Shown: in pieces, positions 16,860-20,978 of the stretch
How the letters are laid out: each line of letters begins with the position of its first letter
How positions within the stretch are numbered: position 1 is the stretch's first letter
DNA from: a virus
Strand: one strand, 5' to 3'
DNA: 64,000 nucleotides
IMG/VR virus record: IMGVR_UViG_3300024999_000072
Span: 18,602 to 82,601 of that record
Notes under the pieces: model-generated
The model's input: the letters and a program-made list of their open reading frames with translations, nothing else
Database searches by the model: none
What the model was told of the DNA's origin: nothing
Translations under genes and position numbers: made by a program

Positions 16860-17546
16860 TCACAACGCCAGCAACGGCAAGAGCTTCAACAACATCAGCG
16901 CAACTCCTCCGAGTATGAGTGTGTTCCCAACTGCCTTTGCGGCTTCCGGAGTGGGGGCAGGTGCAGGGACCTCATCCCTCGGATTAACAACCGATTCGAT
17001 ATCAACGTCCGTGACCAAATGATTCTTCACAGTCCCGGCAAAGTCCTCAAAGTTGCGGTTATCCCTAAAATGTCTCCCGATCTCAACTGTGATTTCATCC
17101 GTCACCCCGTGATCCGGGTCAATCGTCCGTTTGTATTTAAAAACATCTTTGTCGTATCTACCGTTATTGAGTTGGCCTTTGATCTTATTCTTCAAGTAGT
17201 TACCTATCTTATTACCAACGTTATCCAACCTACTTGCATCCATTGTTCGTGGTATACCGATGGCTATTTGTTTTCCTTTGGCTATCCTTTCCCATGTTGA
17301 TAATGGTGCGTAACCCAGTGCTGGATGATCCTCTGACCAGAACATTCCGTTGAGGGAGATGGGGTTATTTTGTGGCATTGGATAGAGATAAAACGCGAAT
17401 GGGGAAGTGTTCAGATAGGCGCTAGGGGTTGTTGCTTGTGCCATGAAGGGGTTTGATAGGGAGATGCCAACTAGAATCATCAGCGTGGCAATGGCGAGTG
17501 TACGACGAACAGTAGACTTGCGCAGGACTAAGATCATATTAATCAA
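16860..17546 (-). CDS. Exported protein with C-terminal membrane anchor
   Basis: Signal-like N-terminus, Pro-rich linker, hydrophobic C-terminus. Confidence 0.7.
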   Translation of the reverse strand: MINMILVLRKSTVRRTLAIATLMILVGISLSNPFMAQATTPSAYLNTSPFAFYLYPMPQNNPISLNGMFWSEDHPALGYAPLSTWERIAKGKQIAIGIPRTMDASRLDNVGNKIGNYLKNKIKGQLNNGRYDKDVFKYKRTIDPDHGVTDEITVEIGRHFRDNRNFEDFAGTVKNHLVTDVDIESVVNPRDEVPAPAPTPEAAKAVGNTLILGGVALMLLKLLPLLAL

Positions 17547-17730
17547 CCTCCAATTTTGCCTTTAATTCTTCTAGGGATTTCAGAAGTTTCTCTATAGTTT
17601 CCCTATCTGGTGGGGAAATCCTCAAAAGAGTATTCAACTTGGCAAACATTACAATCATCTTCCAATACCATATTTCGGCAGTAATCCTACTCTTAATCAC
17701 CCCGACAATTGGTTTTTTCACGCGAAACAC
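17539..17730 (-). CDS. Small hypothetical protein
   Basis: Translationally coupled within operon. Confidence 0.6.
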   Translation of the reverse strand: MFRVKKPIVGVIKSRITAEIWYWKMIVMFAKLNTLLRISPPDRETIEKLLKSLEELKAKLEVD

Positions 17731-17731
17731 C

Positions 17732-18409
17732 TCACTTCATAAAATCTTTGGGGTCAACAGCCTTCCCTCCAATCCTAATCTCAAAATGCAGGTGAGGACC
17801 TGTTGAATTCCCGGTAGTCCCGATCTCAGCAATCTTGTCACCGCCTAGAATCATCTTTCCCTCCGGTACTAATACCTTTGAGCAGTGGGCGTAAAGCGTT
17901 CCGTAATTATTGCCATGATCGATGATGATGTACAGCCCATAAGTACTATCTTCAGCAACTTTCTCCACCGTTCCGGGACGACTAACCCTAATCGGATCGC
18001 CTATCTTCCCAGCAATGTCCAGTCCGTGATTGTTCTCGTTGTAGCCTTGGGTAACTTTTCCCTTCACCGGCCAATCAAACTTCGCATTGCCGGTTAATCT
18101 CTCCCAAATCCCCTGATATCCTACGCTCCCGGCCGGGGAAACGGCATCTCCGATTTGCTTCTGGACCCCTTTGCTTTCGCCGAGTAAATCATTAACCTTA
18201 TCCCGTCCTTGGCTATAGGTCTGAGCGGCTACATGAATATCGTTACTGAGTTGTTTAAATGGTGCGGCTACCCCAGACAGGACCATCAACCCAAGACTAA
18301 CGACACCTAACCACTTAACGAGCATCGCCATATCTTTGCCGGCAGAATGACGAACGTATAAATAAACAACCAGATACAAGGCACTTAGCCTAACAAAATC
18401 AGCGATCAT
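17732..18409 (-). CDS. Membrane-anchored M23/LytM protein with degenerate first Zn motif
   Basis: YAH and TGPHLHFE present; HxxxD appears as NHGLD; two N-terminal TMs. Confidence 0.9.
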   Translation of the reverse strand: MIADFVRLSALYLVVYLYVRHSAGKDMAMLVKWLGVVSLGLMVLSGVAAPFKQLSNDIHVAAQTYSQGRDKVNDLLGESKGVQKQIGDAVSPAGSVGYQGIWERLTGNAKFDWPVKGKVTQGYNENNHGLDIAGKIGDPIRVSRPGTVEKVAEDSTYGLYIIIDHGNNYGTLYAHCSKVLVPEGKMILGGDKIAEIGTTGNSTGPHLHFEIRIGGKAVDPKDFMK

Positions 18410-18612
18410 TTGAACACATCGCCAATCTGCTTAAGAAAACCGATAGAAGCGGCAAGGACCATTCCAGAAACAGAAATTAGCGCAAGGGTTTCAGCGTAAT
18501 AAATCCACTCAGACTTCCCGAAAACTTTAAGACCCAGCTTTATAACTTGGAGACCAACCGCAATCCCGAGTATTGAGAGGATTGGGGCTGCCGCTGAGAT
18601 TCCTGGGAACAT
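18406..18612 (-). CDS. SpoIIIAC-like 2-TM protein
   Basis: 68 aa, two TMs joined by GKSE and ending FLKQIGDVF; matches the SpoIIIAC pattern by eye. Confidence 0.6.
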   Translation of the reverse strand: MFPGISAAAPILSILGIAVGLQVIKLGLKVFGKSEWIYYAETLALISVSGMVLAASIGFLKQIGDVFK

Positions 18613-19328
18613 TGCGATTCCCCCTTTTTCGCGTTGTGTACGTTGAAACAAAACTTCTTGACTTCATCTAGGGTTAGGACTTCGACGAGGTACGAATAGG
18701 CCCGATCATTCTTAACGATTTTCTGAATGATGTCAGTTGGTCCATCTGTCACAATGAGGATGGTAAAATTCTGCTCCTTATTCAAGTCAATCCACCAATG
18801 AGGACGGGCCCCTTGGGATTTCTCCTGAATAAGTTTTTTTGCCAGATCATTGTATTGCTTAATCTTCTTGAACTCATTACCGGATTCGTGCCGATTAAAT
18901 TCACAAAAGAAAGGTTTTAGTTCGGGAGTTTTGAACGTGATAAATTGATCCGGTTGGACGATGGGGAGAAATTCCTTTGGTTCGTTCTGGAAGGTTAGAT
19001 GGAACTTGCTCTCCCTGGCCCTAATGGTCATAAAGGTATAGATCCAACTCTTCCCAATGGTGTGCTCGACGTTTCTTGGGGCCTTCTCGTCAACTAACCA
19101 AAAGTAATCCTTCTCGGAAAACGATATACGATTTCCGCGCTTAATACGTTTTTTCTTAACTAGCCTCCTAGTGCAACGATGGACCATTTCCACAGATAAT
19201 CCAGCGAACTCAAGCAAATGGATTTGATCCGTGTTCAAGCAGTTGCAGCGCTCTAGGTGAGCTAGAACCCGTAAATCTCGGGAGTAGCCCTTTACGTGAC
19301 TTGCTTGACTTGTGTTGCTCATAGTCAT
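18540..19328 (-). CDS. Replication-relaxation (Replic_Relax)-family protein
   Basis: LNTDQIHLLEF wHTH, EH, QPD, CEFNR...KIKQY; downstream of FtsK as typical. Confidence 0.75.
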   Translation of the reverse strand: MTMSNTSQASHVKGYSRDLRVLAHLERCNCLNTDQIHLLEFAGLSVEMVHRCTRRLVKKKRIKRGNRISFSEKDYFWLVDEKAPRNVEHTIGKSWIYTFMTIRARESKFHLTFQNEPKEFLPIVQPDQFITFKTPELKPFFCEFNRHESGNEFKKIKQYNDLAKKLIQEKSQGARPHWWIDLNKEQNFTILIVTDGPTDIIQKIVKNDRAYSYLVEVLTLDEVKKFCFNVHNAKKGESQCSQESQRQPQSSQYSGLRLVSKL

Positions 19329-20574
19329 GCACCTCGCCTTGAATATCTTCGTATGGCATAGCGAACTGGGGGAGTCTGGAAAGGAGTTCGTGGTAACGGT
19401 CGGGATCGGAAACAACAGAAGGGAAATACATAGACTGAACCTCTATCTCTTCATCCCAGTCGAATATTGCTCGGCCCTTAGCCTTCTTTGGTATGAAGGC
19501 TGCTTTGCTATTGCCTAAAATCATGTTGGAGTTCACGGTATCCTTAACCCGGTAAACGAGATTAGCGTCAAACATAGCTTTCAACTCAGGGAATGAACCG
19601 ATCTTACCGAGCGCACCGGAACTAGGGCGTTGGATTGCTCCGACAGTAAATATTCCCTGAGATCTGCCAACATGGAGAAGCCGATGATAGGAGTTATAGG
19701 CATCCTTTGTTAACTCTCCCATCTCATCGCAACACAGAACGATTGCCGGCATCTTGTGCCCGATCTGAAGGAACTCCGGAAAGTTTCTTGCGCCGGTTGA
19801 ATTAACAATCGGAGCCCTACGGTCGTTCTCGTCGTTAACCCACTGCAGGAGTTTTTCGATGTGATGGGGTTTTTTTGCCCACAAAAGTCCATGCTTTTCG
19901 AGATACTGAAACTCACCTAGTTTAGGATCCAGCATAACGGGTATTACACGAGGCTGTTGGTCAATGCGGTTCATACTCAGAAGGGTATAGAGGATTACGT
20001 GTTCGATGTTTGACTTCCCGCTGCCCATCATGCCAACGATGAGGAGTGTGAGCATTTCGGCAAGATCCTTGACGACAAGTCCGTTAATGGAGTAGCCCAC
20101 AGGGAAGGGGAGTAGCATACCTTTCTTGATATAGGGGGAGGGGTCGAACTCGTAGGGATAGGACTTCTTGCGGTCCACGTTACTAACTGTCATATGCACC
20201 GCCATTCCGTGGGCTTCGATCTGACAGGTGCCATCCTCACCTAAAGCATCAGCAAAGGTCTGCTCTAAGGACTTGAACTTCTCGAAGTTGTGTCCAGGCG
20301 GGAGGTTGATCACAAAGAACCATGTTTCGTCAGAGTGGTCATCCATGGACTTGATTCGGCTTATGATCTCCTTCAGGCTCTTAGGGGCCTCCGATTTAGA
20401 TTTAGGCTCCTTGGGTTCGTCGAGTCTCTTCTCGATGATGAGGGGACGGTAATCCTCTCCGTAGACGTGGACTATGACATCGTAGATCTTGGCGGGGATA
20501 CCGCCGCCTCGTTCTCTGCCGCGCCGCCACTGCCTCATGGCGTGGTCGTAAAGATCATGTCGTTCTGTTGTCAC
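19210..20574 (-). CDS. FtsK/SpoIIIE-family ATPase
   Basis: GMMGSGKS Walker A, LDPK, CCDE Walker B, GRSQGI, IQRP. Confidence 0.93.
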   Translation of the reverse strand: MTTERHDLYDHAMRQWRRGRERGGGIPAKIYDVIVHVYGEDYRPLIIEKRLDEPKEPKSKSEAPKSLKEIISRIKSMDDHSDETWFFVINLPPGHNFEKFKSLEQTFADALGEDGTCQIEAHGMAVHMTVSNVDRKKSYPYEFDPSPYIKKGMLLPFPVGYSINGLVVKDLAEMLTLLIVGMMGSGKSNIEHVILYTLLSMNRIDQQPRVIPVMLDPKLGEFQYLEKHGLLWAKKPHHIEKLLQWVNDENDRRAPIVNSTGARNFPEFLQIGHKMPAIVLCCDEMGELTKDAYNSYHRLLHVGRSQGIFTVGAIQRPSSGALGKIGSFPELKAMFDANLVYRVKDTVNSNMILGNSKAAFIPKKAKGRAIFDWDEEIEVQSMYFPSVVSDPDRYHELLSRLPQFAMPYEDIQGEVHDYEQHKSSKSRKGLLPRFTGSSSPRALQLLEHGSNPFA

Positions 20575-20735
20575 TTCGTTCCTCCCTTCTCTTCTTCGCG
20601 GGGTTTTGGCTAGTGTTTATGCGGTTTTTAGCTTGTTCACCGTTTGATAGGGCAAACGGGCTGGAATACGGGGTGTTAAACGTTTGTGCACTCGTTTTGT
20701 ATTTTGAGATGGAAAACGTTTGAAGCAGAGGGATA

Positions 20736-20978
20736 TCAAACGTTTGGGGCAGGATGGGTTTTGCATCGGATGAGTTCATGAGCTATGAGACGTGCATCGG
20801 CTGGGGTGATGGGGTCTGCTAGCTTACCTAACGCTCCCATCTCAGCCAACTTCAGCCGAACTCCATCCCTGACCATATCAGCCATTTCTCCTTCCTCAAG
20901 ATTCAGTCTCTTTACAGCTTGTTGAATGTCTTTGTCTCGCTTACGGAGTCTTGCCTTAAGAATTGTTATGTCGCTCAT
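20736..20978 (-). CDS. RHH-like small regulator
   Basis: ILKARLRKRDKDI...MADMVRDGVR. Confidence 0.6.
   Translation of the reverse strand: MSDITILKARLRKRDKDIQQAVKRLNLEEGEMADMVRDGVRLKLAEMGALGKLADPITPADARLIAHELIRCKTHPAPNV

Follow-up and report, generated by a model that had tools for sequence, protein, structure and literature searches.

To our knowledge, cassettes that pair an FtsK-type ATPase with a Replic_Relax protein are common in the phages and megaplasmids of spore-forming Bacillota, in which they have been noted since 2006–2012 and their function has never been shown. The closest described system is the 'DNA translocation operon' of phage 0305phi8-36 (hereafter the Pathria operon), which, as described in PMC3357382, comprises a relaxase related to MobC of CloDF13, an adjacent coupling ATPase without transmembrane (TM) segments, and separate membrane proteins. 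Partial versions are described there in SPO1, GBSV1, Bacillus virus 1 and the Gamma/Cherry/Fah/Wbeta group, adjoining the integrase gene in temperate phages, and a relaxase/coupling-ATPase/membrane-anchor reading was already reached for 0305phi8-36, SPO1, GBSV1 and the Gamma-like phages (PMC3357382). Here we describe an expanded operon of this type within a 64,000-nucleotide stretch of viral DNA (the window; bases 18602–82601 of the 82.6-kb IMG/VR virus record IMGVR_UViG_3300024999_000072, estimated completeness 85%). The carrier is a temperate phage of Desulfitobacteriaceae, spore-forming groundwater bacteria, and the operon is an accessory of its genome. We tentatively propose an envelope-spanning DNA transfer device as the operon's most likely product.

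The window operon resembles the Pathria operon in placing a MobC/Replic_Relax nuclease beside a TM-less FtsK/coupling ATPase, in including membrane protein(s) and in being non-structural; temperate phages with the cassette likewise carry it between the lysis genes and the integrase gene. The three traits tested (a relaxase-like gene, an adjacent TM-less ATPase, and separate membrane proteins) were all found in the window. Unlike the Pathria operon, that of the window has the order FtsK then Replic_Relax (as in temperate Bacillus phages), with the hairpin gene after Replic_Relax rather than before FtsK, and its small hairpin protein is SpoIIIAC-like and of a different family from the Bacillus ones (hhalign score 11.4, background). 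It adds a hairpin-anchored M23 peptidase, an 80-amino-acid (aa) upstream protein and exported/anchored proteins, and lacks a VirB6-like (orf203) or MreB-like (orf207) gene, the other Pathria members being orf200/201; its hosts are Desulfitobacteriaceae, not Bacillaceae. The cassette type is not new in itself, being already in print (PMC3357382), and the original prediction for this stretch had likewise noted FtsK and Replic_Relax pairs in Bacillus phages. What is new is that a branch in Desulfitobacteriaceae has M23 and exported parts, and that its hairpin protein shows a statistically controlled link to SpoIIIAC. The added envelope parts (hairpin peptidase, exported/anchored proteins, small hairpin) point to the place where the machine works.

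Organisation of the operon

Seven tightly packed open reading frames (ORFs) run on the minus strand from 20978 to 16860, between the lysis genes and attP/integrase. The original prediction, made from the letters of the DNA, had described an overlapping phage operon containing an FtsK ATPase, a Replic_Relax protein, a 2-TM protein and an M23 protein. This description was borne out: all ORFs were found in place, the genes overlap or abut, the parts list agrees with Pfam, PHROG and family alignments, and the operon lies between holin/endolysin and attP/integrase in a viral record. Overlaps amount to 119 nt between the FtsK and Replic_Relax genes, 4 nt between the small hairpin protein and M23 genes, and 8 nt between the genes of the 63-aa and 228-aa proteins. 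Minus-strand terminator-like hairpins at 21140–21114 and 15526–15504 flank a nine-gene unit with the following features.

21114–21140, minus: terminator-like hairpin (12-pair stem, then a T run) after two Xre genes; upstream operon boundary
20979–21113, minus: promoter/leader region, containing AGGTAAT-N14-GGAAC (AGG-N18-GAA)
20736–20978, minus: conserved small protein, 80 aa (ORF)
20678–20745: AAACGTTT (CAAACGTTT) cluster, a candidate protein-binding, oriT-like or clt-like site
19210–20574, minus: FtsK/SpoIIIE-family ATPase, 454 aa (Pfam, PHROG)
18540–19328, minus: Replic_Relax protein, 262 aa when started at the ATG to which relatives align, or 291 aa from 19415
18406–18651, minus: small 2-TM hairpin protein, 81 aa from TTG, or 68 aa from the ATG at 18612
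17732–18409, minus: hairpin-anchored M23 peptidase, 225 aa
17539–17730, minus: 63-aa protein of no family, with a homologue in the L007 provirus (44% identity)
16860–17546, minus: 228-aa protein with, as read from the sequence, a signal-peptide-like N-terminus, Pro/Ala linker and C-terminal hydrophobic anchor
15778–16752, minus: 324-aa protein with a mid-protein TM segment
15551–15754, minus: 67-aa protein with a single TM segment, encoded by the final gene ahead of the terminator, with homologues near the module in L085 and L087
15504–15526, minus: terminator-like hairpin, probably the operon end

A promoter scan found no sigma-70-like site on the minus strand of either 20979–21113 or 16753–16859. 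The 228-aa protein matched nothing in Pfam, PHROG, NCBIfam or PADLOC, and its homologues come after the M23 gene in the related loci L004–L007. The 324-aa protein matches two phage families of unknown function, phrog_37750 (8.1e-24) and phrog_3403 (6.4e-16), and has homologues accompanying the module in L007 and L087.

The FtsK-type motor

The motor protein matches FtsK_SpoIIIE with 40.6 bits (cut-off 24), PF01580 being the sole Pfam family reported at E ≤ 0.01, and belongs to the phage 'FtsK/SpoIIIE-like' family phrog_1358 (1.6e-37, PHROGs). It contains a Walker A motif (GMMGSGKS), a Walker B motif (CDE) and a QRPS motif; residues G186, K187, S188, D283, E284, Q315 and R316 are invariant among the 14 sequences of alignment A1. 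Nineteen database relatives were found at E ≤ 1e-3, and identity to the motors of Bacillus phages is 25–30%. Hydropathy analysis revealed no TM segment, the sole hydrophobic 19-mer being the strand that precedes Walker A, and Pfam at E ≤ 0.01 detected neither a gamma (KOPS/SRS-reading) domain nor a winged helix-turn-helix (wHTH). Compared with FtsK/SpoIIIE proper, the motor domain is thus present and the N-terminal membrane domain and C-terminal gamma domain are absent. The protein reaches no NCBIfam equivalog (EssC, 35.7 bits; FtsK, 29.4 bits against a cut-off of 1566; plasmid_TraB NF041214, 23.6 bits against a cut-off of 800).

When the motor family profile was compared with the PDB, entries 6o1w/x/y/z, labelled 'DNA translocase coupling protein' (5.8e-31), and FtsK 2ius (8.3e-31) were equally good matches. 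We take 6o1w–z to be TcpA of pCW3, for which a review passage prints the code 6OZ1. The window operon shares with the TcpA and relaxase systems of Firmicutes integrative and conjugative elements (ICEs) and integrative and mobilizable elements (IMEs), such as pCW3, Tn916/ICEBs1 and the streptococcal IMEs, an FtsK-like gene directly 5' of the relaxase gene, and the coupling-protein entries 6o1w–z are the best solved relatives of its motor. It differs from them in that the motor has no TM anchor, the carrier is a phage, and the record holds no VirB4/VirB6/VirB8 set; for VirB4-type ATPases, PF12846 and PF03135 gave 0 matches in the 82.6-kb record.

A putative nuclease and a candidate DNA site

The window Replic_Relax protein scores 22.9–23.4 bits against Replic_Relax PF13814, just below the Pfam cut-off of 25.3. 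Thirteen of the 14 aligned family members match PF13814 at E ≤ 0.01 (best 6.2e-13), and a precomputed PF13814 assignment is attached to 10 of the protein's 20 database relatives. The protein has two parts, one wHTH-like at the N-terminus and one nuclease-like. Residues H89, E116, D127, E143, K155, Y159 and W179 do not vary across the 13 sequences of alignment A6, which takes in Desulfitobacteriaceae-type Replic_Relax proteins together with those of BtCS33, GBSV1, 268TH007, DLc1 and the Bacillus wiedmannii megaplasmid (p536); these residues fit an intact PD-(D/E)XK-type site, the superfamily in which PF13814 is placed (PMC3424549, in the part cited). A comparison with PDB sequences returned one spurious match (E 0.99).

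The 80-aa protein is conserved ('ILRARLRKRDKDI...EEGE.ADM.RDG.R', alignment A5), and homologues with 42–74% identity are encoded directly 5' of FtsK in L008–L012, L025 and L085–L087. The original prediction had taken it for a regulator of the RHH type, an assignment that found no backing: none of seven homologues matched any Pfam family at E ≤ 10, and PDB sequences gave no meaningful match. Possibly, it could act as a DNA-binding accessory. Between its gene and the ATPase gene lies a 160-bp gap in which the palindrome AAACGTTT occurs three times exactly, at 20678, 20714 and 20738, together with half-sites, so that three of the six AAACGTTT copies in the 64-kb window fall within 68 bp. The motif CAAACGTTT has five matches against 0.84 expected, a count reached by 0 of 100 shuffles. 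If it is a binding site, the AAACGTTT cluster would be specific to the window phage.

In the closest relative (L004, 70% identity), the place 5' of the FtsK gene that in the window belongs to the 80-aa gene and the AAACGTTT cluster is taken up by about 800 bp without a convincing gene (L004 9166–9960), which carries its own repeats, CAATTGTA and TAGATATA, four times each.

The pairing of this nuclease with the motor raises the possibility of helper-dependent mobilisation of the IME kind, in which the Replic_Relax protein would be a MOBC relaxase, the motor a TcpA-type coupling protein, and the excised phage genome would be handed to a type IV system that the host encodes elsewhere. PF13814 is the MobC relaxase class of streptococcal IMEs, where FtsK-like TcpA coupling proteins adjoin the relaxase genes (PMC5357655, in the part cited), and the motor profile matches the coupling entries 6o1w–z at 5.8e-31. 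Additionally, Desulfosporosinus sp. OT (G001) contains, at L146 (G001:C256:28287–31475), a T4SS_pilin match of 30.8 bits beside a VirB6-like multi-TM ORF. However, TcpA has N-terminal TM helices, as described in the relevant part of PMC12857230, whereas the window motor has none; a hitch-hiker needs no M23, hairpin or exported proteins of its own; and the cassette also occurs in lytic phages. Furthermore, the authors of PMC3357382 noted that phages lack relaxases of any other family, an indication that the use is specific to phages. Taken together, we regard mobilisation of this kind as quite improbable.

The L146 stretch, which is of higher GC, is probably a conjugative element that could serve as mobilisation helper.

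A remote relative of SpoIIIAC

The small hairpin protein was originally described as matching the SpoIIIAC pattern, a claim that survives at the level of profiles but not of Pfam membership. The Pfam model SpoIIIAC (PF06686) did not match the window hairpin protein at E ≤ 0.01, nor any of 15 members of its family at E ≤ 10. For profile comparison, 31 SpoIIIAC sequences were gathered from genomes of the host's phylum and compared by hhalign with the hairpin proteins of alignment A2. The window clade (the window protein and that of L004) aligned with SpoIIIAC at a probability of 93.3% (P 2.8e-7, score 38.0), without gaps over 58 columns that span both helices and the hinge. The reversed control scored 14.4 and 100 block-shuffles gave 12.0±2.8 (maximum 21.7), with 0 of 100 reaching 38.0; such nulls keep layout and composition, not every feature of real hairpin proteins. 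The other 13 hairpin members scored 23.9 against SpoIIIAC (null 9.9±1.7, maximum 13.8, 0 of 60), and 33.5 against the window clade (reversed 13.1).

Single sequences compared with SpoIIIAC scored 27.4 (window), 38.2 (L004), 23.4 (L026) and 21.2 (L017, for which the reversed control is 17.4), and 10.7–16.7 for the 78-aa group that makes up most of the hairpin family. BLASTP without composition correction gave 28–34% identity over 57–59 residues to several SpoIIIAC sequences. In the ESM Atlas, whose look-up scores are leads only according to the tool's own warning, feature ranks 2 and 3 for the window protein are clusters in each of which 14% of members carry PF06686 (scores of 0.88 and 0.86, with 199 and 194 features shared), and a structural match of TM 0.81 leads to a cluster with PF06686 on 100% of members. 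A distant 78-aa member shares the same viral first cluster and then reaches one of these two clusters, that of 732 members (0.86, 187 features). Together, these results argue for a relation between the hairpin protein and SpoIIIAC that is remote but real at the superfamily level and strongest in the window clade, and that falls short of family membership.

The likeness takes in size, the 2-TM hairpin, a hinge of the G-K-x-E type and the full-length profile alignment. In contrast to SpoIIIAC, the hairpin gene lies in a phage accessory operon, not in spoIIIA, and the protein is accompanied by a DNA motor and a nuclease rather than by SpoIIIAA/AB. As far as the literature searched shows, it would be the first SpoIIIAC relative outside the sporulation operon, and it bears on the role of the tiny conserved SpoIIIAC/AD proteins. 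Within sampled genomes of the phylum, PF06686 matches operon copies in 52 of 61 (three matches in 50 genomes, two in the remaining 2), and a six-frame search of three module-bearing Desulfosporosinus genomes found the three tandem spoIIIA copies and no others.

One genome, G189, has a fourth, partial PF06686 match (G189:C29:9212–9304; 27.1 bits, model positions 26–56) in a 35-aa frame outside the spoIIIA operon and on another contig than the G189 cassette.

Other assignments of the hairpin protein were rejected. None of the 15 members matched the T4SS pilin family PF18895 at E ≤ 10, and hhalign against nine T4SS_pilin sequences gave background scores of 14–16; for SpoIIIAD the hhalign probability was ≤3.5%. 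The 2-TM proteins of Bacillus/Geobacillus cassettes belong neither to the same family (7.1–15.8 singly and 11.4 as a five-sequence alignment against A2) nor to SpoIIIAC-like proteins (9.9–15.5 singly, 16.5 as a five-sequence alignment). A single weak match to Spore_III_AE (E 0.0027) was seen in 1 of the 15 hairpin proteins.

The hairpin family comprises at least 92 sequence clusters, none with a Pfam domain; where labels are given, they are Desulfosporosinus, Desulfitobacterium and one metagenome-assembled genome labelled Moranbacteria. In the distant cassettes L171 (94–273) and L028 (6050–6376) the hairpin gene precedes the FtsK gene, an order shared with Bacillus-type cassettes. The hairpin proteins of L171, L017, L019 and L020 have a signal-peptide-like start, with which the conserved G-K-G-x hinge would face the cytoplasm.

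The hairpin-anchored M23 protein

The next gene encodes a protein matching Peptidase_M23 with 102.4 bits (Pfam cut-off 28.7) behind an N-terminal 2-TM hairpin. Because the phage has a separate holin and endolysin, this protein is not its lysis enzyme. The first zinc motif reads N-H-G-L-D in place of H-x-x-x-D, as had been noticed originally, and the HxH motif (HLHFE) is intact. Alignment confines the substitution to one clade: the first zinc His is replaced by Asn in the window, L004 and L005 (3 of 11), and the other eight sequences keep HHG[IV]D, whereas the next His, the Asp, the His of 'YAH/YGH' and HLH are kept in all 11. The degenerate motif is therefore a recent change within a single clade.

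The LytM protein SpoIIQ of Bacillus subtilis is itself degenerate, and the window protein resembles SpoIIQ in having a membrane anchor followed by an M23/LytM domain, with the first zinc His missing from the window copy; it differs in having two TM helices, not one. The originally proposed 'degenerate SpoIIQ-like M23' could not be upheld as a trait of the module, given that most relatives keep the motif and that the domain is a generic M23. The SpoIIQ model NF053738 scored 63.6 bits (cut-off 250) and ranked 8th of 14 NCBIfam M23 matches, the best models being those of peptidoglycan hydrolases and amidase activators.

A further part of the original prediction, that the M23 N-terminus repeats the small hairpin protein, holds for the family but is weak for the window clade. 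As a family alignment, the N-terminal hairpin scored 33.2 against SpoIIIAC (null 10.7±2.5, maximum 17.5, 0 of 60) and 29.6 against the small-protein family; the window-clade M23 hairpin alone scored 17.5, and for some single sequences the reversed controls were as high as the real scores. A second hairpin of SpoIIIAC-like kind at the M23 N-terminus is thus plausible.

In one locus of Desulfosporosinus sp. OT (L085, 11916–12209) the M23 gene has lost its peptidase domain and encodes no more than a two-helix stub of 97 aa; the second module copy in that genome (L173) retains the full M23.

Conserved core and host range

An alignment-based scan with the motor recovered relatives where a single-protein scan of genome contigs found nothing; the best 80 of 241 viral-contig relatives were retained, along with 16 in species-representative genomes. 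The four closest motor relatives among the latter (35–39% identity) are all from Desulfosporosinus. Counted over 97 loci, several of which are the same phage from sister samples, the Replic_Relax gene directly follows the FtsK gene in 24, and M23 is present too in 15. A two-helix protein of 78–83 aa was read between the Replic_Relax and M23 ORFs in all 11 closer loci, and a small 2-TM protein adjoins the FtsK/Replic_Relax pair in all eight distant ones (downstream in seven, upstream of the ATPase in L028). Among 401 genomes of the host's GTDB phylum, nine carry the Replic_Relax gene at 10 loci, with an adjacent FtsK gene at 9 of 10, an A2-type hairpin gene at 8 of 10 and M23 at 4 of 10 (one a stub, one weak). 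A core of FtsK, Replic_Relax and hairpin genes thus recurs in Desulfosporosinus/Desulfitobacterium prophages and in metagenomic phages, and M23 is an accessory of a subset.

The original prediction expected the module to go with sporulating hosts. All nine cassette-bearing genomes do have spoIIIAC/AD, but so high a share of the phylum has spoIIIAC (52 of the 61 genomes sampled) that the nine-of-nine result is without power, its chance probability being about 0.2. Similarity searches also naturally stay within related hosts. Restriction to spore-formers is therefore suggestive, and not statistically separable from phylogenetic sampling. The same co-occurrence, with the SpoIIIAC-like similarity, might be explained if the SpoIIIAC-like and hairpin-M23 proteins entered or mimicked the SpoIIIA–SpoIIQ channel of the host so as to delay, block or exploit sporulation. 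Such interference would leave the constant pairing with a DNA motor and nuclease unexplained; the SpoIIIAC similarity is remote (the BLASTP identities above are its best values), and the M23 protein shows no specific similarity to SpoIIQ. We consider it very unlikely.

GBSV1-type Replic_Relax genes were found in 26 of 50,697 phage records, always beside FtsK. Twenty-three of these records are named for Bacillus, Geobacillus or Cytobacillus, and the others are SpaA1 (twice) and TS-12. The Bacillus-type cassettes, seen in BtCS33, GBSV1, 268TH007, the phi29-like DLc1 and a 536-kb B. wiedmannii plasmid, have the order HTH (helix-turn-helix gene, reverse strand), small 2-TM protein, FtsK, Replic_Relax. 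SpaA1 (HE614281/NC_018277) and TS-12 (MW302330) are labelled Staphylococcus and Stenotrophomonas, and their identity values equal those of BceA1 and MY192, both Bacillus phages. Either these host labels could be mistaken, or the phages could be of the Bacillus type.

Plasmid matches to the FtsK/Replic_Relax pair came from 105 records, all Bacillus (B. cereus group), of which 61 are typed as non-mobilizable. This distribution is in keeping with intracellular DNA handling, in which the Replic_Relax protein would be a replication initiator or resolvase-like nuclease, the motor would serve segregation, dimer resolution or episome maintenance, and the membrane proteins would act as tethers. RefSeq calls the phage proteins 'replication initiation protein', the Pfam family is named 'Replication-relaxation', and a B. 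tropicus phage-plasmid has the pair beside its repA/parABS region (PMC11526630, in the part cited). These names, however, are automatic annotations rather than tests, the phage already possesses a helicase and an early region, and a peptidase and exported/anchored proteins within a translationally coupled operon are hard to account for. An intracellular role thus seems to us rather unlikely, and a trans-envelope role is preferred on account of the envelope parts, namely the M23 hairpin and the signal-peptide/anchored protein.

A possible mechanism of DNA transfer

In the envelope-spanning device that we propose, the Replic_Relax protein, perhaps with the 80-aa protein, would bind and nick or cut the phage DNA, with the AAACGTTT cluster at 20678–20745 as candidate site. 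The soluble, hexameric FtsK/TcpA-like ATPase would be recruited to the membrane by the SpoIIIAC-like hairpin protein and the related M23 hairpin, and would drive DNA across the membrane, where the M23 and exported/anchored proteins could open or hold the peptidoglycan. By analogy, this logic would resemble that of Streptomyces TraB and Spd more closely than a VirB4-based type IV system. Both have a lone FtsK-like motor without VirB4 and small membrane proteins in the transcription unit, and the short repeated words of the window could be a recognition locus comparable to clt (PMC12857230, in the part cited). TraB differs in being membrane-associated and in reading clt itself, whereas the window motor has no TM segment and is always accompanied by a separate nuclease/wHTH protein; moreover, the window hosts are unicellular Bacillota.

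Several observations count against a transfer device. The motor has no membrane anchor of its own, and its docking to the hairpin proteins is something that we purely infer. The window M23 protein, having lost the first zinc-binding His, may be inactive, and the more distant cassettes, like every Bacillus-type cassette seen, have no M23 gene, which implies that wall cutting is not essential to the core function. AAACGTTT is absent at the same place in 15 related loci, most relatives having no gap there. MOBC relaxases are, as far as the cited part of PMC12857230 goes, not known to stay covalently on DNA: the MOBC prototype TraX of pAD1 binds direct repeats 70–120 bp from the nick site, and no covalent intermediate was detected. 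The cassette is also found in strictly lytic phages (the phi29-like podovirus DLc1, and SPO1 and 0305phi8-36 according to PMC3357382), to which cell-to-cell transfer would be of no obvious benefit. Finally, deletion of the cassette from 0305phi8-36 caused no laboratory growth defect (PMC3357382); this result makes the cassette dispensable there and says nothing on its role.

The destination of the DNA would be either a sister compartment or forespore, or a touching cell, and the evidence favours neither decisively. For the forespore speak the SpoIIIAC resemblance, the gain that lytic phages would have from spore entrapment, and the spore-former host range; against it, an integrated prophage enters the spore unaided. 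In its strongest form, which we judge unlikely, the small hairpin protein and the M23 hairpin would be true SpoIIIAC homologues and the cassette a mobile relative of SpoIIIE/SpoIIIA–SpoIIQ that loads the phage genome into the forespore at the septum. Were this so, SpoIIIAC/AD would serve a cytoplasmic ATPase as its docking or gating subunits in the membrane, and spore entry would be the task of the FtsK and Replic_Relax cassettes in Bacillus-type phages. More broadly, a transfer role bears on whether phages of spore-formers, temperate and lytic, move DNA across the septum or to a neighbour without virions.

Phage genome context

The stretch is present in groundwater metagenome runs from a single study, possibly that from which the record derives, and in no RNA run, and no DNA-level relatives of it were found in phage and plasmid collections. 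Features of the window outside the operon are listed below.

4603–5067: holin (family match)
5064–5879: endolysin (family match)
6986–14110, minus: SNF2 helicase, PAPS-reductase and DUF3440, a possible N6/N4 methylase and several unknown proteins
21612–21382 (minus), 21407–21126 (minus) and 21800–21991 (plus): three Xre-type HTH genes, the HTH being read from the sequence only
22509–22560: perfect bidirectional terminator hairpin GATCCCCCAACCATGCATGGTTGGGGGAT, with the integrase gene on one side and a rightward ORF of 100 aa on the other
22593–22625: three direct GTATGACACA-type repeats adjoining the integrase gene (repeat family D4)
22632–23672, minus: integrase gene (Pfam match)

The block at 6986–14110 has its own near-consensus promoter (14427–14399, TTGACG-17-TATAAT) and looks like a DNA-modification or counter-defence operon. 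This neighbour brings defence or superinfection exclusion into consideration, whereby a membrane-sited ATPase and PD-(D/E)XK nuclease would attack or expel foreign DNA and M23 would act as an abortive-infection effector. The interval between the lysis genes and attR is a usual site of prophage accessory genes, the operon is oriented as the integrase and repressor genes are, and the ATPase domain has a weak SspH match (36.8 bits). However, nine of the ten module proteins had no relevant match in PADLOC 2.0, and the SspH match covers a generic FtsK domain; the cassette occurs in lytic phages; and the ATPase gene of the Fah cassette is expressed as a delayed-early lytic gene, according to the cited part of a review. 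A defence role therefore appears distinctly improbable to us, and a transfer device remains our preferred reading. One coiled-coil module protein matches JetC at 14.6 bits (PADLOC 2.0).

The three Xre-type genes upstream of the operon could possibly form a local switch, and homologues of Xre-type genes lie upstream of the module in L007, L085 and L087. The GTATGACACA-type repeats at 22593–22625 look like attP arm sites and, together with the hairpin GATCCCCCAACCATGCATGGTTGGGGGAT, like an attP region. An anti-repressor and a helicase are encoded rightward of the integrase region. The first 18.6 kb of the record can be read, from ORF sizes and order, as a probable structural module, and the overall order is late genes, lysis, accessory, DNA-pump operon, three Xre genes, attP, int, repressor and early genes. 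This gene order and the attP-like region suggest that the record is in unintegrated phage order, in which case the prophage would have the module at attR, its far end. The L007 (G004) provirus, 55 kb long and rated 100% complete, carries a copy of the whole operon at 33–41% identity, and the operon lies at most 1.5 kb from the end of that provirus, as predicted by the unintegrated order of the window record.

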